Shown here piece after piece: positions 1 to 11,149 of a DNA stretch of 11,149 nt. How positions within the stretch are numbered: position 1 is the stretch's first letter; each line of letters starts with the position of its first letter. Under the pieces are notes generated by a model that had not been told where the DNA came from, ran no database searches, and worked only from the letters and a program-made list of their open reading frames with translations. The translations under genes were made by a program, and so were the position numbers. Origin of the DNA: a virus (Duplodnaviria > Heunggongvirae > Uroviricota > Caudoviricetes); the IMG/VR virus record IMGVR_UViG_2923302340_000010, positions 1-11,149 of that record; one strand, written 5' to 3'.

Positions 1-285
1 TCACACTCCAACGCGAAGACAACGAACTTTCCTGAATGCCTTACCATTGGGCTGATGTAATCCCATTCCGGCATGTGCCCGGCTGATGGTTTCGCGCATC
101 TCCCCGAAATTATCCTGCTTTGCTGGTGGGCGTGCTGCCTTGTGGATACATTCCGCGCGACGTTTTGCCGCCTGTTCCCGTGCCTTGTCATCATTCGCCA
201 GCATGATGACCTCAGCCCACCGCGCCGCCGCTCTCCGGTACAGACCACGCGCTTCCAGTGCTTCCGCTTTGCTGTCGTGAATCAT
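1..285 (-). CDS. PerC-family transcriptional regulator-like small protein (94 aa)
   Basis: Complete ORF: ATG at 285..283, TGA at 3..1. The motif EARGLYRRAAARW matches my recollection of prophage PerC/Pch-type regulators. The ATG overlaps the stop of the upstream ProQ-like gene (ATGA), suggesting translational coupling. Confidence 0.5.
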   Translation of the reverse strand: MIHDSKAEALEARGLYRRAAARWAEVIMLANDDKAREQAAKRRAECIHKAARPPAKQDNFGEMRETISRAHAGMGLHQPNGKAFRKVRCLRVGV

Positions 286-812
286 GCGCCTGTTTTCTCC
301 TTTGCTGCCCGGCGCTGACGTTTGCGCTTCTCATTCAGCGCCATCAGCCGCGTTTCTGCGTCCTGTTGTTCCTGTGGTGTCACCTCGCCGCACGGCTGGC
401 CTTTCAGGTCGTAACGCGCCCCACCAGCAACCAGGGCGCGGTAATAGCGCGGAGACTGCGCATAAGATGCCAGCGTCGCACGTAATGCCCCTGGCCCAAA
501 TGCCAGCCCCCTGACGGCGAGATCCTGCATCAGGTCGTCGAATATCCCCACCTTAAGCGGCTTCGGTGCTTCCCGGCTGAATAAGTCAGGCCACAACTCA
601 GTGAGGCGGTTAACGCGCCTGCGGTTTTTGCGCTGGCGTTTGGTCATATGCCGCCACGGTGTCGCCCCTGTGGGCTTCTGCTGCGCGTTCTGATTACCGG
701 GCATCACTTTATATGCCGATGTGGTTTTATCCTGCTGTTGCGTCTCCTGTACCATTTTTGTGGCATACCGTAATTTCTGTTGATGGTCAGCTTTTCCATG
801 TGTACTTTTCAT
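282..812 (-). CDS. ProQ/FinO-domain RNA-binding protein (176 aa)
   Basis: The segment PLKVGIFDDLMQDLAVRG...GALRATLASYAQSPRYYRALVAGGARYDLKGQPCGEV resembles the ProQ N-terminal/FinO domain, with a basic K/R-rich C-terminus. ATG at 812 has no obvious SD; internal Met codons are possible alternative starts. Confidence 0.7.
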   Translation of the reverse strand: MKSTHGKADHQQKLRYATKMVQETQQQDKTTSAYKVMPGNQNAQQKPTGATPWRHMTKRQRKNRRRVNRLTELWPDLFSREAPKPLKVGIFDDLMQDLAVRGLAFGPGALRATLASYAQSPRYYRALVAGGARYDLKGQPCGEVTPQEQQDAETRLMALNEKRKRQRRAAKEKTGA

Positions 813-891
813 CGATATTATCCGTATTATCGTCGTTCCTTTTGATGGCTTATTTCTATAGAAATTTCTTTATTGCTTATTACCCAGATAA

Positions 892-1218
892 TTAACTGAC
901 TATTAGTGCTTTAATACTCAGGTACGCAGAAAGAATAACACCAATAAAAGAAGGGTACAGCAGAATCCCAAACAAAAACTTCATGTACTTATGTTTTCCT
1001 ATCACTTCGTTAATAACAGATATTATACTCAACATACATAATGCAATACTTATAGTTGCAATAAATGCAATAGTAAGCAAGATGAAATATCTTACACCTG
1101 TTTGAGAAGATAAATTTGCAATTATACCTATCATAACGAGACTCTGTATAATCCCGAAAGACAAAGCACCAGAAGACTTTTCCACTATTTCACTAAATTT
1201 CTTCACAAAGTAAATCAT
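892..1218 (-). CDS. Small hydrophobic membrane protein, hypothetical (about 108 aa, predicted multi-pass)
   Basis: Strongly AT-rich ORF. ATG at 1218..1216 is preceded by AAGGTGA at 5-nt spacing (the track start at 1227 is GTG). The protein is dominated by I/L/F/V stretches consistent with about three transmembrane helices. TAA at 892..894. Confidence 0.55.
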   Translation of the reverse strand: MIYFVKKFSEIVEKSSGALSFGIIQSLVMIGIIANLSSQTGVRYFILLTIAFIATISIALCMLSIISVINEVIGKHKYMKFLFGILLYPSFIGVILSAYLSIKALIVS

Positions 1219-1295
1219 ATATATCACCTTTATATAACGCTATGCTAAGGTTTATTTATACGATATCCCCAAATGGTATTCCATCACCGTACGGA

Positions 1296-1514
1296 TCACT
1301 CTGCTGGCCTTTTTTGCCGCCCGGCCGCACCGTTCGCGCACTGATTACGCTGTCTGCGATAACCAGACCAGCCACGTTTCGCCGTTCCGTCATCTGCCTG
1401 GCTGCGCGGAAGGGGAACTGCCATACTCGCCATTGCCATTGGTGTTCCCTTGCTGGTGGTTTTTGAGTGCAGATCAGCCACCTGCTGCCCGTAAGCGGAT
1501 ATTTGTACCGTCAT
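1296..1514 (-). CDS. Hypothetical small protein (72 aa)
   Basis: ATG at 1514, TGA at 1296..1298; the ATG overlaps the stop region of the upstream 66-aa ORF (ATGA at 1511..1514). No recognisable motif; a plus-strand ORF overlaps it. Confidence 0.35.
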   Translation of the reverse strand: MTVQISAYGQQVADLHSKTTSKGTPMAMASMAVPLPRSQADDGTAKRGWSGYRRQRNQCANGAAGRQKRPAE

Positions 1515-1711
1515 GCTGTTTGCTCTCCGGTTTTAACGTTGATGATTGTCACCTGTTCAGCTTCGGCAATCTCCCGTTCTGTCAGCGTGGCAAAGTTTGC
1601 CGCTGCCGTTGTCATGAATGCGCTTATCAGTTCGGGATGTACTTTCGCGTATCCTTCCCCGGCGTTGCGGTCGATAATTTTTATCGCCCCCCTCAGCCTG
1701 TGTTCTGTCAA
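1511..1711 (-). CDS. Hypothetical small protein (66 aa; start uncertain)
   Basis: The track ORF begins with TTG at 1711 and has no clear SD; an internal ATG at 1615 is an alternative. The sequence looks protein-like (AIKIIDRNAGEGYAKVHPELISAF) and lies just downstream of the iteron cluster. Confidence 0.3.
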   Translation of the reverse strand: MTEHRLRGAIKIIDRNAGEGYAKVHPELISAFMTTAAANFATLTEREIAEAEQVTIINVKTGEQTA

Positions 1712-1799
1712 ATCAAGGGCGTGAGATTGTGTTTTTTGTGTGTTTCGTTGTCACAGCCTTTACCTCACAGCAATAAAATAAAATTTTTGCATTTTAACC

Positions 1800-2030
1800 C
1801 TTCACCTGTTCACCTTTTTCCGTTTCTCCTTTTAATTCATTGTGTTAAGGGGTGAACAGTTTCACAAAAACTATTCACCAACTGTTCACCACTGTTCACC
1901 CTTAAAGCTCAACAAATAATCAAAAAGGTGAACAGTGAATAGTTTGATGAACAGTTCATGAATAACTGTTCACCCTATAACCAACTGATATAGAACACAT
2001 TTATTACAGGGTGAACAGTGATGAACAGTT
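1800..2030. repeat. Iteron cluster of TGTTCACC/GGTGAACA octamers (P4 ori/crr-type replication origin region)
   Basis: Direct copies of TGTTCACC at 1807, 1883, 1893 and 1967; inverted copies GGTGAACA at 1851, 1927 and 2010; degenerate copies (ATTCACC, ATGAACAG) at 1873, 1947 and 2021. AT-rich context, starting immediately after the stop of the primase C-terminal ORF. Confidence 0.75.
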
Positions 2031-2041
2031 ATTCCATAAGT

Positions 2042-2386
2042 TTAATTTTTGCCATCGTCATTTGTGACCGATGCACATGAGGGCATCCAGTCTTCTGAAT
2101 CCTCTGTCAGTATCACGTTTGAACGCAAGCCATGCTTCGTTTTCCGTTTCATATACTCCCTGCCGTATTCCGCCATTGCCCCTGGCATATCCTTACCGAA
2201 GCGTGTCAGTGTTACGGGCTTACCGAATCCGTGTGCCCTCATATACGCCAGATAGGCGTGATAGAGATACCTGCGCGGGCTGAACGGAATAATTTCAGCA
2301 TTACCCACTAACAGGCCATCGCACATTACCGACGACATGAGATAGCCGCAGAAGTCCACCAGCGAATCGCCCTCGCGTTTTATCAC
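2042..2386 (-). CDS. C-terminal fragment of the P4 alpha-like primase/helicase (putative origin-binding domain), split from the upstream ORF by an in-frame TAG
   Basis: Same reading frame as 2438..3841. The 17 codons between the TAG at 2438..2440 and the GTG at 2386 are open (read-through gives ...LLTRFSD*DEAKRLLYEQQKSEEALVIKREGDS...). The pattern YLYHAYLAYMRAHGFGKPVTLTRFGKDM resembles the conserved C-terminal region of P4-family primases. Weak RBS before the GTG. Confidence 0.6.
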   Translation of the reverse strand: MIKREGDSLVDFCGYLMSSVMCDGLLVGNAEIIPFSPRRYLYHAYLAYMRAHGFGKPVTLTRFGKDMPGAMAEYGREYMKRKTKHGLRSNVILTEDSEDWMPSCASVTNDDGKN

Positions 2387-2437
2387 CAGGGCTTCTTCTG
2401 ATTTCTGCTGCTCATATAGCAGGCGTTTAGCTTCGTC

Positions 2438-3841
2438 CTAGTCAGAAAAGCGTGTAAGCAGGTGGCGAATCACTACCGCCAGCTCTCCTTCTATTTTTTC
2501 AGCCAGCATAGGGTCACGTTCGTTCTCCGGTACAACTTCCGAAAAATTGAATATTACCCGACGACGTGATATCCCACCGCTGCGGTCACTGAATGACATG
2601 GCGTTATTGTTCACCGCCAGCACGACCGCCTGAATGCGTGTTGAGTAGGGGGCTTTATGTTTCGGGTCGATTGCCACCTTATCACCGCCTGTAATGGCCT
2701 TAATCCCTGCACCATCACCAGCGTAACGGGTCATATCCGGCATGATAATCAGCGAAAAGCCAACCACTAACGCACGTTCCCTGGCATCTTCCAGCGCCTT
2801 CATGCTTGCCGATACCGTGTTGGCCTTACCCGCCAGCATAGTGCAAATCTCCGCCATTACGCTTTTACCGCTTCCACCCGGCCCCGTTACCTCAAGAAAT
2901 AACTGCCAGTCGTACCGATTCGCCAGCACCATGAATAACGCCGCCAGTACGCGATCTGCCTTGCGGTCATTCTCAGCCACCGAACGGCGCAACCACTTCC
3001 AGAAATTCGGCGCATGTGTTGCCAGCGTTTCCCCCTCTGCTGGTGGGCTGAAAGGTAATTCACTGGCAATTAACAACCAGTCGTTTTTGTTATGCTCCCG
3101 AAAATTACCAGTTCTGGTATCAAATACCCCGTTACTGAATCCAATCAGGTTACGGGCTGTATTCCCCATTACGGGCAAACTTAACTTCATGGTATCGACC
3201 GCCGATTTGATGGCGTTCTGCGAATAGCTGATTTCCGCATCAATAAAAATCTGCGCCATAGTCCGCTGTAACTCTTTATCCTGTACCGGCTCCCATACAA
3301 CACCGTTGTAGTGGTGAACGGTGTCAGAATCCGCATTGATTGCCAGTTCACCGCCATAATGTGCCAGGAGAACTTCGCCGCGCTGGCTGGCTCCCATCTG
3401 ATTTAGTGCTGGCCTGGGTAGGTCAATATTTTTTGTGGCTAATTTCATCGCTGAAACTTCCCCACTCTCTGCCTGTTCGCGGATCCGTTGCAGGTAGTCG
3501 CGCCAGTTTTCCGGCTCCCGGTCGGTGATACCTTTGTATAATTTCGCGTCCTGTACGCCAGCCAGTGCCAGTTTTTCAGCGATAGCATTGATCTGGATTG
3601 GTTCGATCTCCCCCGCGAGATAGACACGCGCAAAGCGGCGTTCATCGTCGACAATGCGGATATTCGCCAGGTCTGCCAGTTGCTTTGGCCCCAGGTAAAC
3701 AGGTGGTACGTTATCGCCGTGTTTTCGTCCTTCGCTTTCAATCCAGTGTTGAGCATGGGCGTAAGCATCCGTCCCGGCAAAAATGATTACCTCAGTGAAT
3801 TTATCCTTCGGCTGATATTTCAAACTCGGTGCGTTTTTCAC
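2438..3841 (-). CDS. P4 alpha-like primase/helicase (D5/P4-family P-loop NTPase), truncated by an in-frame TAG at 2438..2440
   Basis: 467-aa ORF with Walker A motif GPGGSGKS. GTG start at 3841 is preceded by GGGAGGT and overlaps the stop of the upstream gene (GTGA). Together with 2042..2386 it would make a roughly 600-aa protein. Confidence 0.85.
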   Translation of the reverse strand: MKNAPSLKYQPKDKFTEVIIFAGTDAYAHAQHWIESEGRKHGDNVPPVYLGPKQLADLANIRIVDDERRFARVYLAGEIEPIQINAIAEKLALAGVQDAKLYKGITDREPENWRDYLQRIREQAESGEVSAMKLATKNIDLPRPALNQMGASQRGEVLLAHYGGELAINADSDTVHHYNGVVWEPVQDKELQRTMAQIFIDAEISYSQNAIKSAVDTMKLSLPVMGNTARNLIGFSNGVFDTRTGNFREHNKNDWLLIASELPFSPPAEGETLATHAPNFWKWLRRSVAENDRKADRVLAALFMVLANRYDWQLFLEVTGPGGSGKSVMAEICTMLAGKANTVSASMKALEDARERALVVGFSLIIMPDMTRYAGDGAGIKAITGGDKVAIDPKHKAPYSTRIQAVVLAVNNNAMSFSDRSGGISRRRVIFNFSEVVPENERDPMLAEKIEGELAVVIRHLLTRFSD

Positions 3842-4128
3842 TTCTTACCTCCCGCAACCAACATTGCCCGGATTTTTTTAATATTCGTGGCTGCACGTCT
3901 TGCCACTGCCTGTTGTTTGTTTTCAACCAGAATAAAATCACGCTCAAACTGACGGCGCGGCATTACGCAGTCATATTCGTAAGCCTCACGGCGGTAGGTG
4001 ATATTGCCTGGCGTAACGTGACGAATAACCACTCGTCCCCCACGTCTGGTGTCGCGGTAAATATCGCCGTGTCTGATTTCAGGCCGAGCGGGGCCGCTGG
4101 CAGTAAAGCCAGAATTTTTCTTTTTCAT
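3838..4128 (-). CDS. Hypothetical basic protein (96 aa), coupled to the primase start
   Basis: ATG at 4128, TGA at 3838..3840 overlapping the primase GTG. Arg/Lys-rich; no motif recognised. Confidence 0.55.
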   Translation of the reverse strand: MKKKNSGFTASGPARPEIRHGDIYRDTRRGGRVVIRHVTPGNITYRREAYEYDCVMPRRQFERDFILVENKQQAVARRAATNIKKIRAMLVAGGKK

Positions 4129-4132
4129 GGTT

Positions 4133-4333
4133 TTATTTTCCTGTCAGCAGTTCCGGTTTTATTTCCGCACGAATACAAAGTTCAGAAAAAAATTCAGGAG
4201 AACCAACAATCTCATTACTTTTCAGTCGGCATTGTGATTTCACTTTCCCTTTATCCAGGTAAACCAGTACGCGTCCGGTGAAATCATCTGGCACACTCAG
4301 GGTAATTGTCATTGTTGCTTGCTGATTATCCAT
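4133..4333 (-). CDS. Hypothetical protein (66 aa)
   Basis: ATG at 4333 preceded by a GGGGGTGA SD; overlaps the stop of the upstream gene by 8 nt; TAA at 4133..4135. Confidence 0.5.
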   Translation of the reverse strand: MDNQQATMTITLSVPDDFTGRVLVYLDKGKVKSQCRLKSNEIVGSPEFFSELCIRAEIKPELLTGK

Positions 4334-4691
4334 GATTCACCCCCTGAATAACCTGATAACCGCAACTGGTCAGCAATTCGATAAATTCCGGCAGTGTGCC
4401 GAAACAGCAATCATCACGCATACGTTCGCGGGATACCTCAACGCCGTTTTCGTAGTGACTCACCATGCGTCCAGTAAAATGCAGATCATCATCGTGATGG
4501 CACGTTGACGGCTTAATCAGTCGCGCACGTTCTGCCAGTTCCAGCAATGCTTCAACGCTTCCGGCAATTGCACCATCCGGCAGGTGATAATTACTTACCA
4601 CGCGTCCATTCTCCACGTTGACCAGTAGCTGCCCGGAAAATATCTCGTCAAACTGAATGCTGTTAAGGTCAGAAATTGACAGGTTATGCAT
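4326..4691 (-). CDS. Hypothetical protein (121 aa)
   Basis: ATG at 4691 preceded by CAGGAGGTG at ideal spacing (the track's longer start at 4709 is less likely); 8-nt overlap (ATGCATAA) with the upstream gene's stop. Confidence 0.55.
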   Translation of the reverse strand: MHNLSISDLNSIQFDEIFSGQLLVNVENGRVVSNYHLPDGAIAGSVEALLELAERARLIKPSTCHHDDDLHFTGRMVSHYENGVEVSRERMRDDCCFGTLPEFIELLTSCGYQVIQGVNHG

Positions 4692-4908
4692 GGTGCACCT
4701 CCTGCACATCAGCCATGATAATTTTTCCGGCCTTATCCAGTGCCTGATCGGCTTTTAGCTGCACAAATGCTAAATAATGGGAGATGCATTCTGATTCTCT
4801 GGCTGCGTGTTTATGCGCCACACCAGCGATAGCAGAAATCTCAATAAGTGAATCCATCAGCGTTTTGATAGCGTCTACCGCTGCATCAGGCCATGTTGCA
4901 TTACACAT
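4684..4908 (-). CDS. Hypothetical protein (74 aa)
   Basis: ATG at 4908 preceded by CAGGAGGTGG; overlaps the stop of the upstream gene (ATGTGTAA). Confidence 0.5.
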   Translation of the reverse strand: MCNATWPDAAVDAIKTLMDSLIEISAIAGVAHKHAARESECISHYLAFVQLKADQALDKAGKIIMADVQEVHHA

Positions 4909-5266
4909 GTTCCACCTCCTGGCGAATGCGGGCAGCGAATACCATCACGCAGCCATCAGGAGATTGCTGGCGTGCTTCCTGTTCGCTGGTGGCCTCGATG
5001 TGAATTACACGCGGTTGTGCTGTGCTCAGGGCGATAAAACGCCATATAAAATTGTTTTCGCATTTCTGAATAAACAGCGTGTTTTCTTCGCGCCCTTTCC
5101 ATGTTGCCGAGATATAGCCCATATCATTGAGCATCTTGCAGGCATCCACCAGCGTATCAGCGGCTACGTGTACAGTGTTTTTACCGTCAGCCATGCAATC
5201 ACGGTGCACCGCCAGGAAGGTGTATATAAATTTAGGGTGAGTTTGGGTATGCTGTATTCCAGCCAT
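4901..5266 (-). CDS. Hypothetical protein (121 aa), first gene of the operon leading into the primase
   Basis: Internal ATG at 5266..5264 of the 384-aa track ORF, preceded by GAGGT at about 8 nt. Upstream of it the frame yields low-complexity Ser/Cys-rich sequence and overlaps the plus-strand regulator gene, so the long ORF is an artefact. Confidence 0.55.
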   Translation of the reverse strand: MAGIQHTQTHPKFIYTFLAVHRDCMADGKNTVHVAADTLVDACKMLNDMGYISATWKGREENTLFIQKCENNFIWRFIALSTAQPRVIHIEATSEQEARQQSPDGCVMVFAARIRQEVEHV

Positions 5267-5353
5267 AATCGTTACCTCATTTAACGGTTTGGTTAGAAGC
5301 CCGGTTAGTGTTCGCGCACTGCCGGGTTTCGTCGTTTTTATGAATCGCTCATT

Positions 5354-5455
5354 GTGAGATACATAGCGACCTCCATGTGAGATACACATTATATTGTGGT
5401 GATATACATTGCAAGTGTTTTTATATCTCACTTTTGTGTATAGTGATATACACAT
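5354..5455. promoter_or_regulatory. Phased operator-like repeat array GTGA(G/T)ATACA(CA)T in the divergent intergenic region
   Basis: Direct copies at 5354..5364, 5377..5389, 5399..5409 and 5443..5455, plus an inverted copy ATATCTCAC at 5423..5431, spaced about 22-23 bp apart (two helical turns). A possible extended -10 (TGTGTATAGT, about 5435..5444) faces the plus-strand gene. Confidence 0.5.
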
Positions 5456-5474
5456 AACAAATTGGTGATTAACT

Positions 5475-5777
5475 ATGTCTGTATACAAAAATGCAAAATC
5501 GCAAATGACAACGATCAGGGTTCCCCACGATGTTATGGAGGGCATGGAATCCGTAAAACTGGACGGCGAAAGCAACGCCGGATTCATAGTAACCGCCATG
5601 CGCGGTGAGATCGCTCGCCGCCAGGCAGAAGGAAGAGGAGAAAATCCCCTGGTTTCTTCGCTCGATGCACTGGCGCAGGTGGAAAAAATCGGTGTCAAAG
5701 CTGCCGAGGAGATCGGGCAACTCGTCACCGTCGCGCGTGAAGAACTCCAGCGCCGCAAGGCCAAAGAACAGGAGTAG
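5475..5777 (+). CDS. Small DNA-binding regulator, putative ribbon-helix-helix (CopG/Arc-like) repressor (100 aa)
   Basis: ATG at 5475 with GGTGA 6 nt upstream; TAG at 5775..5777. TTIRVPHDV (beta-strand), then a helix, a NAG turn and a second helix (FIVTAMRGEIARR) fit the RHH pattern; charged helical C-terminus. It is the only convincing plus-strand gene in the element and is divergent from the small-gene operon. Confidence 0.5.
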   Translation: MSVYKNAKSQMTTIRVPHDVMEGMESVKLDGESNAGFIVTAMRGEIARRQAEGRGENPLVSSLDALAQVEKIGVKAAEEIGQLVTVAREELQRRKAKEQE

Positions 5778-6047
5778 TTGATCAGCACCGGGCGACCAGA
5801 AAAAATCGCATCAGTCGCACCACCAGCAAAATTTTTTGCTTTCCGGACAGCGTGACCAACGACATTTTGCAGCAAAATATTCTGCATTTCTGGCGTGCTG
5901 TAGTAACGGTGATCAGCGCCTTCACTCTGTGCGACCACAACGCTATAATCTGCCTCGTAGACAGTAAGCAATATGGCGCAGTAGGCTATTCGTTCACAAA
6001 GGCGCTCCGGCAACGGGGCGCTTTCTCTTTTTGTAACGGTCAGAGCG

Positions 6048-6896
6048 TTACACATGGCTGTTTTCCTCCATGCGGCGGGCTAACCAACGCTGCGAAAGAC
6101 GAATTAATTCAGCTTTCCGCTGGTGGTAGTCCTGGCCTAACTCAATCAGCGTGATATTGCTCTGCTCAAGGTAAGAAAGGTGCTCAAGCTGCAACGTGCT
6201 CATGTGGTCGCGTGGTTCGCCTGTGATGCCGTTCGCCAGTGCCCACTGTTTTGCAGTCATGCCACCCAGCACGATACGCGCCAGCATATTGGCTTCCGTG
6301 GTGTAGTGGTGCTGGAACGTGCTTTTACCCAGTTCAGCCCGGTACGCCTCCAGCGCGGCGCACATCGGCTTAAAGTAGCTGGCAACGGTGATACGGGCTT
6401 TCAGTTCCCGGCGTAACGCTGCGGAACGCACTGGCGCCACCTTGTGTAGATCCTCCTCGCATTTGATGAAATACTGGCGAACGGCGCGGCCTTGTTCGGT
6501 GCGTTCGACCATCGCCAGTTCTTTCGCCATGTTCGTGGAGATCAAATAGTCTTCACTGCGGCGATCACCGCCGCGCTTTGTTGTCCAATCAGAATCAAAC
6601 TGTTCAATATTTACACTTTGGTTCCCCCGTTTCGGGGAATCAAAGTACAAATTTTCTACAACTTCAAAATCCACGCCATTTTTAAATCCGTACTCATCAA
6701 TACGTCCTTTAATCCAGGTAGTGAAATCACGGCCTACCCCGAGCGCCTTATACAACGCTCTGGCGCTAACAATATTGGTTTCACGCCCGCCAATAACGCC
6801 GGAAATAACCGGGATAATTTCGCCAAAATTTTGCAGATTCTGGTTTTCAGGCCGAACGAAGCCCTGCCCCTGTACGGGCGTTTTTGGAAATTTCAT
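6048..6896 (-). CDS. Phage antirepressor-like protein with N-terminal AntA/Bro-N-type domain (282 aa)
   Basis: ATG at 6896 preceded by AGGAG; TAA at 6048..6050. ALYKALGVGRDFTTWIKGRIDEYGF and NMAKELAMVERTEQGRAVRQYFIKCEE match the conserved blocks of phage Ant/Bro-N antirepressor N-domains as I recall them. Confidence 0.7.
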   Translation of the reverse strand: MKFPKTPVQGQGFVRPENQNLQNFGEIIPVISGVIGGRETNIVSARALYKALGVGRDFTTWIKGRIDEYGFKNGVDFEVVENLYFDSPKRGNQSVNIEQFDSDWTTKRGGDRRSEDYLISTNMAKELAMVERTEQGRAVRQYFIKCEEDLHKVAPVRSAALRRELKARITVASYFKPMCAALEAYRAELGKSTFQHHYTTEANMLARIVLGGMTAKQWALANGITGEPRDHMSTLQLEHLSYLEQSNITLIELGQDYHQRKAELIRLSQRWLARRMEENSHV

Positions 6897-6973
6897 AAAA
6901 ACTCCTGCTATCGAATTAAGTTACTTTTATTTGCTGGTGGATAGCTGGGGGCAATAGCCCCGTAGCCATTTAA

Positions 6974-7171
6974 TCAGGTAGCTGTTCCGCGTGATTCTGC
7001 AATACGCTGATTAATCCACTCGTCAATTTCACTCTCAACGAAAGCAATCGCTCGCGAGCCAATTTTAACTGATGCAGGAAATTTACCTTGCCCCATAAGG
7101 CGATAAATCCATGCCTTGCTATATCCAGTTCTACGCTGAACTTCTGTTAAACGAATAAGCGTATTTGACAT
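6974..7171 (-). CDS. alpA: AlpA-family phage regulatory protein (MerR-like HTH; excisionase/transcriptional activator type, 65 aa)
   Basis: LTEVQRRTGYSKAWIYRLMGQGKFP...ESEIDEWINQR matches the AlpA/Vis family pattern (HTH followed by EIDEW). ATG at 7171 preceded by GAGGT; TGA at 6974..6976. Confidence 0.85.
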   Translation of the reverse strand: MSNTLIRLTEVQRRTGYSKAWIYRLMGQGKFPASVKIGSRAIAFVESEIDEWINQRIAESRGTAT

Positions 7172-7240
7172 ATATTTACCTCATAACGTCTACTCAATTT
7201 GACGAGGTAATCATGGCACAGAAATAACGAATATTTTCAT

Positions 7241-7385
7241 ACCCTCAGGCCTAATGGTTACCGGAAGGAAATTAACCCTAAGGGTGATGGTAATCGGGAG
7301 GAAATCTACCCTAAGGGTGATGGTAAAATTGACGGGGAAGATAAAAAAATACCCTCAGGGTAACAGTAAATCACCCTCAGGGTAT
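7241..7385. promoter_or_regulatory. Array of palindromic ACCCT(A/C)AGGGT sites upstream of alpA, including a 31-bp tandem duplication
   Basis: Sites at 7275..7285, 7308..7318, 7351..7361 and 7373..7383, with a half-site at 7241..7249. Nearly identical 31-bp units at 7263..7293 and 7296..7326 (GGA(A/G)GGAAAT(T/C)(A/T)ACCCTAAGGGTGATGGTAA). TACCCTcAGGGTA at 7350..7362 is a perfect 13-bp palindrome. Confidence 0.5.
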
Positions 7386-7398
7386 GCGGTATGGTGCG

Positions 7399-8196
7399 TT
7401 AATCCGGCTTTGCGTTCTTTTGGCTGTTGTCTCGGTTAATAGGGCAGGCAGTCCTCTCTATGAGCGTTGCAAGAGCATTACTTGCCCCCCACTGCTTAAG
7501 CTCCCTGGTTATCGCTTCTTGATTTCCCCTGGTGGCAAAATCATTTTCTGGATCGTAATTGGCCCACTCTCTGTTTCTAATCTCAATAGCCTTAGCTAAT
7601 GGGTCTTTATCCCAGTATTTATATAAGTGTATCGGGCGCTCTTGCTCTAACTGCTCTATCCTTGCCCTTAACTCTGCGTTTTCTTTTTCCAGCATTGCGA
7701 TTTGGGATAATAAATCATCCTCTGTACGCAACTCTTTCTTTTCAATATCGCGTCCTTGTGCCTCGTCATTTTCAGAAGAGTTAGCGCCTTCCAGCTTCGT
7801 TAACGCGTCAAGGACATCGGGAAAAATTGCGAAAATTTCACCCCTTATAAATCCAATGTTCTCAAATTCGGGATCTTCCCAATAACCGGACACCAGAAAA
7901 CCATTTTCATCCCTCTCACCAGGTAAACAACCACGTTTCCGAACCGCATTCAGATTTCTATAAAGAACATCATAATCAAATTCATCCCGATACGGGTTAC
8001 AAAAAGATTCCAACAGCTTAAATTCATTTACTGTGTACAGGCGGATATGTTCTCCGTTTATTCTCCTGAGTATCCAAGTTATGACATCTGAAACATCATA
8101 ATCATCACCAGCGACCTTAAGCACGACCTCAAGAAATTCACGTAAAGAAATAAAATCTTTTTTGTATTCGTTTAATTCGGCATGAATATCAATCAT
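7399..8196 (-). CDS. Hypothetical acidic protein (about 265 aa) with central coiled-coil; AT-rich orphan gene between int and alpA
   Basis: ATG at 8196 preceded by GAGGTG (the track start at 8202 is GTG); TAA at 7399..7401. Markedly lower GC than its neighbours. Coiled-coil-like segment LLSQIAMLEKENAELRARIEQLEQE. No catalytic motif recognised. Confidence 0.7.
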   Translation of the reverse strand: MIDIHAELNEYKKDFISLREFLEVVLKVAGDDYDVSDVITWILRRINGEHIRLYTVNEFKLLESFCNPYRDEFDYDVLYRNLNAVRKRGCLPGERDENGFLVSGYWEDPEFENIGFIRGEIFAIFPDVLDALTKLEGANSSENDEAQGRDIEKKELRTEDDLLSQIAMLEKENAELRARIEQLEQERPIHLYKYWDKDPLAKAIEIRNREWANYDPENDFATRGNQEAITRELKQWGASNALATLIERTACPINRDNSQKNAKPD

Positions 8197-8324
8197 ACGC
8201 ACACCTCAGCGTCCTCTACTGTAGTGGCTGTACCAGTCCGTCGAGGTGTACGGATTTTCGGGAGCGACCCTAGACACAGCCTTTTCTTTCGTCGCTCAAA
8301 GTCTACTACTGTATACTCAACCAG

Positions 8325-9539
8325 TCACCCGCATTTTCCGAACTCACCATGCACCACATTTCCGCCATGCTCGAGCGAATCCATATAGTCGGCATACCAC
8401 TGGAGCATCTCCCGGCGACCATCCAGATATTGCGCATGGTTGTATGTGCCACGAATTGAGTTTTTATCGACGTGTGCAAGCTGTGTCTCTATCCACGCGG
8501 TGTTATAGCCCTGCTCATGCAAAATGGTGCTCATGGTGTGCCGGAATCCATGACCAGTAACCTTTCCGTTATAGCCGATGCGTTTAAATACTTGGTTTAT
8601 GCTAGCCTCGCTCATTGTTTTCCTTGGATCATTACGGCCGGGAAACATAAGCGGATAATTGCCAGTTAATTCTTTAATCTGCCCAATAAGCGAAAGAGCC
8701 TGCTTAGACAAAGGCACCACATGAGGGCGACGCATTTTCATCCGTGAAGCAGGTATCTCCCAGATAGCCTTGTTGAGATCGATTTCATCCCATAATGCAC
8801 CGCGCAGTTCGCCAGTCCGCAAACCGGTGATAATCAGTAGACGAGCCGCCATAACAACCAATGCACTTCCTGAGTAACTGGACAATGCCTTGAAAAAATC
8901 AGGTAATTCTTTGGCTGTGAGGAAAGGATAATGATTAGATTCATGACCTTGCATCGCGCTGGTGAGATCCGGTGCAGGGTTATACTCAGCACGTCCAGTG
9001 ACAATTGCATAGCGGAAAACCTCCCCGCATCGCTGCCTCACTTTTTTGGCTTTTTCGGTAGCACCGCGCCCCTCGATGCGCCGCAGCACATTCAGCAGTT
9101 CAAGTGGTTTGATTTCGGCGATTGGTTTTTTGCCAATGTAAGGGAACACATCTTTGTTGAAGGCTTCGAGGATGTCTGAAGCATAACCAGCAGACCATTT
9201 TTTTAATTTGCTGCTGTGCCACTCAAGGGCAATATCTTTGAAGGTGTTGTTTAACTGCGTTTCCCGGGCAATCTTTTCCTCTCGTTTCGCTTCCATCGGA
9301 TCGATACCCCCAGCGATACCCCTTTTAGCTTCTTCACGTTTTGCACGAGCATCAGCCAAGGTAACTTCAGGATACACACCTAGTGCTAACAGCTTCTCTT
9401 TACCAGCTACACGATACTTGAAGCGCCAATATTTTCCTCCACTAGGTTTTACCAAGAGATACAGACCGCCACCATCAGCCAGCTTGTAAGCCTTCTCTTT
9501 TGGCTTGGCAGTGTCTATTTGACGGGCATTGAGTTTCAC
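8325..9539 (-). CDS. int: P4-type tyrosine site-specific integrase (404 aa)
   Basis: N-terminal arm-binding-type region (LNARQIDTAKPKEK...GGLYLLVKPSGGKYWRFKYR), catalytic R in GLRTGELRG, H-x-x-R in HGFRHT, and a C-terminal Tyr in RGTYNH. GTG start at 9539 preceded by GGAGGT. Lies directly beside the tRNA 3' end. Confidence 0.95.
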   Translation of the reverse strand: MKLNARQIDTAKPKEKAYKLADGGGLYLLVKPSGGKYWRFKYRVAGKEKLLALGVYPEVTLADARAKREEAKRGIAGGIDPMEAKREEKIARETQLNNTFKDIALEWHSSKLKKWSAGYASDILEAFNKDVFPYIGKKPIAEIKPLELLNVLRRIEGRGATEKAKKVRQRCGEVFRYAIVTGRAEYNPAPDLTSAMQGHESNHYPFLTAKELPDFFKALSSYSGSALVVMAARLLIITGLRTGELRGALWDEIDLNKAIWEIPASRMKMRRPHVVPLSKQALSLIGQIKELTGNYPLMFPGRNDPRKTMSEASINQVFKRIGYNGKVTGHGFRHTMSTILHEQGYNTAWIETQLAHVDKNSIRGTYNHAQYLDGRREMLQWYADYMDSLEHGGNVVHGEFGKCG

Positions 9540-9614
9540 TTGGGGGTACCTCCACTAAACCGAACAGCAAATACCCCCAAAAGTACCCCCAATTGACTGT
9601 AGATTTTGGGGTAC
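9540..9614. promoter_or_regulatory. GTACCCCCAA repeat set between int and the tRNA (candidate Int arm-binding sites / int promoter-operator within attL)
   Basis: Inverted copy at 9540..9549 (abutting the int start codon), direct copies at 9572..9580 and 9583..9592, inverted copy at 9606..9614. Confidence 0.45.
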
Positions 9615-9705
9615 TTAAGTAGACGTCAAAAGACTAAAAGGGGCATTAATATACTGATTATAAGAGGTTTTTAAATACTTTAGTAGACTTGGGGAGACGT
9701 TAGAA

Positions 9706-9781
9706 TGGTGCCGATAATAGGAGTCGAACCTACGACCTTCGCATTACGAATGCGCTGCTCTACCAACTGAGCTATATCGGC
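9706..9781 (-). tRNA. thrW: tRNA-Thr (anticodon CGU)
   Basis: The reverse complement reads GCCGATATAGCTCAGTTGGTAGAGCAGCGCATTCGTAATGCGAAGGTCGTAGGTTCGACTCCTATTATCGGCACCA: 76 nt, cloverleaf-compatible, anticodon loop TTCGTAA, encoded CCA. Position downstream of proA matches the E. coli proA-thrW arrangement. Confidence 0.95.
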
Positions 9782-9826
9782 CCTGAAAGGACATGTTCAC
9801 GAACGTGAATCACGGTGGACAAGGTT

Positions 9827-9889
9827 AAAACTAACCGGGCGATGCGTCAATGGCCTTGTGAATCAAATGGCTACTTTTGCATCACCCGG
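9827..9889 (-). terminator. Possible proA transcription terminator (long-loop hairpin followed by a U-rich tract)
   Basis: Inverted repeat 9835..9845 / 9879..9889 (11 bp, one G-U position), followed on the minus strand by UUAGUUUU. The loop is long, so this is weakly supported. Confidence 0.3.
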
Positions 9890-9895
9890 TTTTAT

Positions 9896-11149
9896 TTACG
9901 CACGAATGGTGTAATCACCAATGCCGATCCACTTGTAAGTGGTCAGCGCTTCCAGCCCCATTGGGCCACGCGCGTGGAGTTTTTGTGTGCTTACCGCCAC
10001 TTCCGCGCCCAGTCCAAACTGGCCGCCGTCGGTAAAACGCGTAGAGGCGTTAACGTAAACAGAGGACGAATCCACTTCGTTAACAAAACGCTGGGCGTTG
10101 CGCATATCGCGGGTCAGGATCGCATCGGAGTGTTGTGTGCCGTGTTCACGAATATGGGCGATGGCATCGTCAAGATCGCTGACGATTTTAACGTTCAAAT
10201 CTAATGACAGAAACTCATCGTCATACTCTTCGGCTTTAACAGCCACCACCTTCGCGGGGCCTGCCTGCAACTGCGCCAGCGCAGCTACATCTGCGTGTAA
10301 TGTCACGCTGCTTTCCGCCATTTGCTTGCTTAATGCGGGCAGGAAGCTATCGGCGATGTTTTTATTTACCAGCAACGTTTCTACCGTATTACATGTGCTC
10401 GGACGCTGAGTTTTTGCGTTAACGATTACTTTCATGGCTTCAGCGATCTCTGCACTTTCATCAACGTAAATATGGCATACGCCTATACCGCCTGTGATCA
10501 CCGGGATTGTCGACTGTTCGCGGCACAGCTTATGCAGGCCAGCGCCACCACGCGGGATCAGCATGTCGATGTATTTATCCATACGCAGCATTTCACTTAC
10601 CAGCGCACGGTCAGGATTATCAATCGCCTGCACGGCACCCGCCGGTAAGCTGCAGGATTTCAGGGCGTCCTGAATCACCGCCACCGTTGCAGCGTTAGTG
10701 CGACAGGTTTCTTTGCCACCACGCAGGATCACTGCGTTACCGGTTTTCAGGCACAGGGAAGCAACATCAACCGTCACGTTCGGGCGCGCTTCATAAATCA
10801 CGCCAATCACCCCCAGCGGTACGCGACGACGCTCCAGACGCAGACCGCTGTCCAGTACGCCACCATCAATCACCTGCCCCACCGGATCGGCGAGGTTACA
10901 CACCTGACGCACATCATCGGCAATGCCTTTCAGCCGTGCGGGCGTCAGAGCCAGACGGTCAAGCATCGCTTCGCTAAGGCCATTGGCACGCGCGTCAGCA
11001 ACATCCTGCGCGTTAGCGTTGAGGATGATTTTGCTTTGTGCTTCCAGTTCATCGGCGATTTTTTCCAGCACGCGATTTTTTTCGCGGCTGGAGAGTTGCG
11101 CTAATTTATACGAGGCTTGCTTCGCGGCAATGCCCATTTGTTCCAGCAT
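9896..11149 (-). CDS. proA: Gamma-glutamyl phosphate reductase (glutamate-5-semialdehyde dehydrogenase)
   Basis: Full 417-aa ORF: ATG at the window end ([19 protein letters not shown]...), TAA at 9896..9898; aldehyde-dehydrogenase-like throughout; lies beside the tRNA-Thr gene as in enterobacterial chromosomes. Confidence 0.97.

Follow-up and report, generated by a model that had tools for sequence, protein, structure and literature searches.

A Dcm-site amber codon very probably inactivates the replication initiator gene of a PICI-type satellite

The closest described counterparts of the locus reported here are phage P4 and the phage-inducible chromosomal islands (PICIs). The P4 alpha protein (777 amino acids, aa) unites a primase region, a helicase and a C-terminal domain; the binding of iterons by this last domain is attributed to Yeo 2002 and Ziegelin 1995, as these studies are cited in PMC2777425 and PMC7864180. 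In the PICIs of Escherichia coli, the origin is described as lying immediately 3' of the pri-rep gene and as consisting of an AT-rich region surrounded by iterons, and the accessory genes include PerC variants (PMC6092414). For one of them, EcCICFT073, plasmid maintenance requires both pri and ori, and the Delta-pri-rep island was transferred at 37-87 units compared to about 1e5 for a marked island in the same table (PMC6092414). Similarly, a cosmid carrying the CFT073 PICI-ori was lost from cells that lacked the primase protein: after 5 h, about 1% of them were GFP-positive, versus about 75% in its presence (PMC11338833). Here we analyse a stretch of 11,149 nucleotides (nt), positions 1..11,149 of IMG/VR record IMGVR_UViG_2923302340_000010, hereafter called the window, in which the gene for a replication initiator of this kind is interrupted by a single amber codon. 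Coordinates are window positions, and protein-coding features and their domains lie on the minus strand unless stated otherwise. We consider it very probable that the amber codon is a recent nonsense mutation at a Dcm hotspot, which inactivates the initiator of a PICI-type satellite.

The minus-strand frame 3841..2042 comprises 600 codons and is terminated by TAA at 2044..2042. Its translation contains one internal stop, codon 468, which is a TAG at 2440..2438. Consequently listed as two same-frame open reading frames (ORFs), 2438..3841 (467 aa) and 2042..2386 (114 aa), each with a GTG start, the gene had been recognised as interrupted in a first-pass annotation of the window, and both the shared frame and the TAG as the only stop between the ORFs were confirmed by translation and by the ORF listing. 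There is a 4-nt overlap between the GTG start at 3841 and the end of the DUF4222 gene upstream, and this start arrangement matches the annotated starts of the intact genes in ABU 83972 and O111 8E. The shared frame is not a matter of chance, as the 467-aa and 114-aa pieces match consecutive parts of one protein family, and the frame downstream of the amber codon carries no second lesion across 396 nt. The best reading is that 2438..3841 and 2042..2386 are the two halves of one pseudogene of a PICI replication initiator.

Comparison with intact relatives identifies the sense codon that the TAG replaces. In ABU 83972, whose DNA shows 99.7% identity to the window across 3.4 kb, GAC-CAG-GAC stands in the place of the window's GAC-TAG-GAC, and the alignment places CAG (Gln) at this codon also in A41, IMT5155, O157 ECP19-198, O111 8E and PA2. 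At the protein level, a 599-aa E. coli protein found on 27 contigs (P0031) is colinear with the read-through product without gaps, at 95% identity, and has Gln468. Among the 120 closest homologues, which belong to Escherichia, Citrobacter, Salmonella, Klebsiella and Raoultella, lengths range from 547 to 606 aa. Pox_D5 and D5_N occur in one chain in 118 of them, 117 of which have DUF5906 as well; the remaining two of the 120 are a 547-aa partial record and a protein in which only the DUF5906 annotation is missing. When 1.8 billion cluster representatives were searched, full-length members with identities as low as about 30% aligned through residue ~590, and in an alignment of 37 more distant members (27-85% identity, 570-830 aa) the C-terminal domain was present in every one. 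At position 468 this alignment has Pro, Gln, Glu or Ser, and the residues that follow are conserved, with A471 being invariant. Altogether, 157 homologues with identities reaching down to 27% were inspected; the stop was seen in none of them, and each is a single chain. The possibility that homologous primases normally end at the position of the stop thus does not hold, as the homologues run on as one chain. The initiator gene of the window is itself recombinant: the first 430 nt at its 5' end group with the lineage of 599/601-aa proteins, and the stretch 3409..28 is 99.7% identical to the 604-aa ABU 83972 lineage.

The amber codon separates the helicase from its DNA-binding domain. When glutamine was substituted for the stop, Pfam detected D5_N at aa 156-285 (PF08706, E = 4.8e-13; 2987..3376), the SF3 (superfamily 3) helicase ATPase core DUF5906 at aa 319-427 (PF19263, E = 3.9e-11; 2561..2887) and Pox_D5 (PF03288) at aa 490-585 (2087..2374). 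A weak match to PPV_E1_C, the papillomavirus E1 helicase, was found at the helicase core. With the pieces scanned apart, the 467-aa product, which starts at the GTG and ends at the amber codon, contained only D5_N and DUF5906, and the 114-aa piece only Pox_D5. The Walker A motif GPGGSGKS, which the first-pass annotation had assigned to the upstream piece, is located at 2861..2884. The score of the window protein against TIGR01613 is 97 bits, under the cut-off of 108.7 bits. Past the stop, 131 residues match the origin-binding winged helix of P4 alpha (PDB 1KA8) with E = 6.6e-25 over 97 aligned residues. The earlier proposal that a helicase is separated by one amber codon from a P4 alpha-type C-terminal domain is therefore borne out. 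In P4 alpha, which shares the D5_N, SF3 and winged-helix arrangement and is 49.9% identical to an intact orthologue over about 470 aa, the origin-binding domain is part of the same polypeptide, whereas the window copy is cut before this domain.

A structural model shows where the protein is severed. For P0031, the intact 599-aa sibling, AlphaFold gave a model with a mean pLDDT (predicted local distance difference test) of 90.1. The model begins with an N-terminal alpha/beta domain (aa 1-126) and a disordered linker, continues with D5_N and the ATPase, which ends in helices at 446-464, and closes with two connector helices (468-479 and 482-491) and a winged helix (493-585). In this model, the stop coincides exactly with the onset of the first connector helix and precedes the DNA-binding domain by 22 residues. 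The 467-aa product thus retains Walker A, Walker B and the arginine finger and lacks the connector helices and the origin-binding domain, which are encoded by the severed 3' part of the gene (2042..2437). In a Foldseek search with the full model, the top PDB fold match was the primase-helicase of the staphylococcal PICI SaPI5 (7OLA), followed by the D5-type helicases of African swine fever virus, mpox and vaccinia.

The putative target of the lost domain lies next to the gene. An array of iterons at 1807..2027, in both orientations, consists of seven exact and three one-mismatch copies of the octamer TGTTCACC. The exact copies are found in 1807..2017, at most 235 bp past the end of the gene, and the three one-mismatch copies within 1872..2027. 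In the whole window 0.38 copies would be expected, and none of 200 shuffles reached eight matches. The array is embedded in a stretch of 31-38% GC (1720..2040) that starts directly after the stop of the gene at 2042. In the P4 GenBank record, an identical octamer is annotated as 'ori type 1 repeat' and occurs in ori and in crr, with crr directly 3' of alpha; the iteron block of the window has the same position relative to its gene as P4 crr. The connection drawn previously between the lost C-terminal domain and iterons immediately downstream is consequently sound. At the equivalent of window position 1892, where two iterons adjoin, ABU 83972 has 1 nt inserted between them, which is absent from the other sequences compared.

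The sequence context of the amber codon, which had been overlooked when the stop itself was noticed, would explain how the mutation arose. The ancestral pentamer CCAGG is a Dcm site. It is conserved in seven intact relatives, and in the window it has become CTAGG (2437..2441, minus strand), which contains the amber TAG, by a C>T change of the inner C at 2440, the base that Dcm methylates. The second C of CCAGG is the classic amber hotspot of lacI (Coulondre et al. 1978, as covered in the review PMC12606429). As in lacI, the inner C was replaced by T, and an in-frame CAG was turned into an amber TAG within CTAGG; the difference is that lacI served as a laboratory reporter, whereas here the gene belongs to a mobile element in natural isolates. 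Of the eight Dcm sites in the gene variant of the window, one yields a stop upon deamination, and this is the mutated one; ABU-type genes have two such sites. The tetramer CTAG occurs 5 times in the window compared to about 43 expected occurrences. A second Dcm-site transition within the gene is found in IMT5155, where CCTGG is changed to CCTAG at the equivalent of window position 2387, a synonymous change from CTG to CTA; this supports the view that Dcm sites are hotspots of mutation here. We infer that Dcm methylation followed by deamination of 5-methylcytosine caused the C>T change.

From these observations, the following course of events can be proposed. The intact initiator is a single chain of about 600 aa, composed of a Toprim-like N-terminal domain, D5_N, the SF3 helicase and the winged helix, and would bind the TGTTCACC iterons located directly 3' of the gene that encodes it. 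Codon 468 was changed from CAG to TAG, presumably by a spontaneous deamination of 5-methylcytosine that escaped very-short-patch repair. Translation would then end after the ATPase core, and the 467-aa product would not be targeted to the origin. Since PICI replicons need both initiator and origin, the island should fail to amplify after induction, and probably it is no longer mobilisable at high frequency. It would accordingly represent a recently disabled, or grounded, satellite with a pseudogene in place of its initiator gene. A decayed gene for an SSB (a protein that binds single-stranded DNA), described below, fits a decaying replication module.

Several points weigh against this interpretation. 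The predicted loss of origin binding is based on domain studies of P4 alpha. In principle, the GTG at 2386 could yield a free 114-aa winged-helix domain, and low-level read-through of UAG by tRNA-Gln would restore the wild-type glutamine. E. coli generally carries dcm and vsr; both loci lie outside the window. The base at 2440 is known from assembled sequence, and a private error in this genome may exist. Finally, the amber allele is found on two haplotypes, which could reflect recurrence or recombination, and if it were selected, neutral decay would be an incomplete description.

The distribution of the T allele bears on several of these points. An exact 81-mer around the TAG was absent from all 5,426 complete RefSeq genomes of E. 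coli, 62 of which match with one mismatch, and exact-pattern scans for the TAG allele detected none in the GTDB species representatives and none in the JGI metagenome contigs. Truncated products occur on 1-4 contigs, compared to at least 999, 252 and 76 contigs (more than 1,300) for the intact alleles. The same T was found in E. coli B671 (GCA_002109655.1), in the Logan assemblies of SRR024243 and SRR024239 and in one ENA metagenome contig, which over 1017 positions has a single difference from the window. Because the T recurs in these four other records, we regard the allele as real. It resides on two haplotypes, with about 11 sites at which they can be told apart. The window and the ENA metagenome contig make up haplotype A, with ABU 83972, A41 and O157 as CAG sisters, and haplotype B comprises B671 and the two Logan read sets, with IMT5155 as CAG sister. 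This pattern fits recurrence at a hotspot, and a single origin combined with a conversion tract of less than 1 kb would also be compatible with it. Among the three options offered by the first-pass annotation (nonsense mutation, sequencing error and programmed split), the nonsense mutation is thus favoured by the CAG in the orthologues, the single-chain organisation of the family and the rare, independently seen T.

The alternative that survives best, which we nevertheless regard as unlikely, accepts the amber codon as real and attributes it to an ordinary replication error that fell into CCAGG by coincidence, with the two haplotypes reflecting one origin and subsequent spread by recombination. 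No informative sites distinguish the haplotypes between 2705 and 1743, so that a tract of less than 962 bp would suffice; moreover, the islands are mosaic, as seen in the switch of lineage near 3409 within the window gene. However, it is precisely the methylated C that was hit, and the substitution is precisely C>T; together with the CCTGG to CCTAG transition in IMT5155, two of about 33 variable sites fall on about 0.6% of positions. Furthermore, the two carrier islands have unrelated integrase modules, as no nucleotide match to the window integrase (8325..9539) was found in the B671 island. The comparison of recurrence with recombination uses IMT5155 as its single reference for the second haplotype, the complete E. 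coli genomes being at most 99.3% identical to the B671 haplotype.

A base-calling or assembly error at 2440, with CAG and an intact gene as the true state of this genome, appears decidedly improbable. What speaks for an error is that the base is read from an assembly whose contig is not among the complete RefSeq genomes, as these have no exact match to the 81-mer, and that nanopore base-callers are known to have difficulties with Dcm motifs. There is also a precedent in PA2: its gene is intact (604 aa, with CAG) in the finished genome, and an older draft has a separate 114-aa product (ELV93624.1) identical to that of the window. This mismatch represents either a draft error or variation between stocks, and it suggests that some split calls in drafts may be artefacts. 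Against an error stand the four other records with the same T, which stem from different projects and technologies and include the nearly identical metagenome contig. We also considered a systematic miscalling of Dcm sites in the window, which was rejected: the window keeps 21 intact CCWGG sites compared to about 20 expected, and of its 11 differences from ABU 83972 over 3.4 kb, only the amber site lies in a Dcm site, which makes miscalling of the methylation motif unlikely. In addition, the neighbouring genes that are intact in the relatives are intact in the window as well.

It is very doubtful that the split is functional, be it as a programmed or suppressed stop, as a helicase working in two pieces with the 114-aa protein, or through a free domain that acts as an iteron-binding regulator. 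What speaks for such a function is the downstream frame, which is untouched over 396 nt, the position of GTG 2386 ahead of the entire winged-helix domain as crystallised for P4, the ancestral glutamine that tRNA-Gln or supE-type read-through would insert, and the occurrence of the allele on two haplotypes. Yet the stop is found in none of the 5,426 complete E. coli genomes and none of the 157 homologues, which leaves a programmed split unsupported, and truncated products are restricted to a handful of contigs compared to more than 1,300 for the intact alleles. The 51-nt gap between the two ORFs is conserved coding sequence, including the invariant A471, with no intergenic signal. A promoter or a strong ribosome-binding site for the 114-aa ORF was searched for and none was found; ahead of GTG 2386 there is just a weak GAAG, and no promoter-like site was detected nearby. 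Nor does the window encode an amber suppressor tRNA, its only tRNA being tRNA-Thr(CGU). The rarity and lack of conservation of the stop, the conserved 51 nt, the weak GAAG without a promoter and the lack of a suppressor in the window together make a functional split unlikely. Equally far-fetched is a scenario in which the Dcm-site amber arises repeatedly and is kept for a benefit to host or island, the methylation hotspot serving as a crude switch on satellite replication: the benefit may lie in grounding a costly satellite or in a 114-aa domain re-initiated at GTG 2386, which, free on the TGTTCACC iterons, may block incoming related satellites or P4-like elements, and the amber could revert or be suppressed back to glutamine.

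Returning to the inactivated initiator, its N-terminal region does not conform to the label 'primase' under which the gene was first described. The domain at aa 1-126 (3464..3841) has an alpha/beta Toprim-like fold without a zinc ribbon and without the conserved acidic catalytic residues. Pfam returned no match for the N-terminal 157 aa even at E = 10, and no counterpart of the P4 zinc ribbon (CPVCGG...CNQC) or of the Toprim motif EGYATA was found in the window protein. The DnaG-like primase domain of P4 type, with zinc ribbon and Toprim EGYATA plus DxD, is accordingly missing, and similarity to P4 alpha begins only at residue 125. Unlike P4 alpha, with its primase region of about 300 aa, the protein encoded here thus has a 126-aa Toprim-like domain in this place. 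It is best described as a degenerate Toprim-like module, and a primase activity is unsupported. The label 'DNA primase family protein', which is attached to enterobacterial proteins of about 600 aa, has no recognisable primase active site behind it. The N-terminal module of this family also occurs fused to other C-terminal regions.

The initiator gene is part of an island that, in our best reading, contains the replication module of a PICI-type satellite at tRNA-Thr (thrW) beside proA. The integrase, a tyrosine recombinase of 404 aa (8325..9539), adjoins tRNA-Thr(CGU) at 9706..9781 and proA. Just downstream of the integrase gene, ahead of a 267-aa ORF (7399..8202), the int-alpA RNA was detected on the minus strand at 8213..8280 (RF02996, 45.5 bits, over the gathering score); an Rfam scan of the window returned the tRNA and this RNA only. 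An AlpA-family regulator is encoded at 6974..7171 (PF05930, E = 2.4e-19), and the further content comprises an AntA-family protein, a small divergent regulator, several small ORFs and the DUF4222 gene. All main ORFs are on the minus strand, with the exception of the small divergent regulator. Downstream of the origin are the genes for a ProQ/FinO-family protein of 176 aa (282..812) and a PerC-family activator (1..285). An integrase at the att site, AlpA and genes running in one direction to pri-rep are therefore present, as is an origin immediately 3' of the initiator, in which iterons are combined with an AT-rich stretch as described for PICIs (PMC6092414). This organisation, including int-alpA RNA, a fused pri-rep gene followed by the iteron origin, and PerC, is shared with the Gram-negative PICIs, exemplified by EcCICFT073 (Fillol-Salom et al. 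2018, PMC6092414). The window copy, known here from its sequence, differs from these PICIs in its nonsense-mutated pri-rep gene and its decayed SSB gene. The P4 genes sid, psu, delta, cI and epsilon are not in the window, which instead contains AlpA, AntA, an Icd-like gene, DUF4222, ProQ/FinO and PerC. The earlier assignment of the locus to the P4 type hence stands with respect to the homology to P4 alpha and the iterons, but the island as a whole is organised as an E. coli PICI. Nearly identical initiator genes are located in islands of O111 and O157 that encode a capsid/protease fusion.

The SSB gene was traced by tblastn with the intact 140-aa SSB of O157 ECP19-198. Its remnant (1271..1514) encodes aa 1-45 and aa 94-140 in different frames, the middle being deleted; the annotation of ABU 83972 marks this remnant as incomplete, and those of A41 and IMT5155 mark it as frameshifted. 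The ProQ/FinO gene is flagged as frameshifted by the Prokaryotic Genome Annotation Pipeline in ABU 83972, A41 and IMT5155, with no indel across this gene between ABU 83972 and the window; the copy in the window may be another pseudogene. An ORF of 384 aa (4901..6055) spans the region of the Icd-like gene and the divergent YlcI/YnfO-type regulator (5475..5777, plus strand) and is probably spurious over most of its length. No match to window positions 5048..5747 was found in ABU 83972.

For annotation, the two ORFs of the split gene should be joined under a single pseudogene entry for a PICI replication initiator, and the island should count as probably replication-defective when satellite mobility is surveyed. 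The event itself is an ordinary gene-killing mutation that arose by a known mechanism and is not new. The locus opens no new question; it provides a natural example of a lacI-type Dcm amber hotspot on a mobile element.

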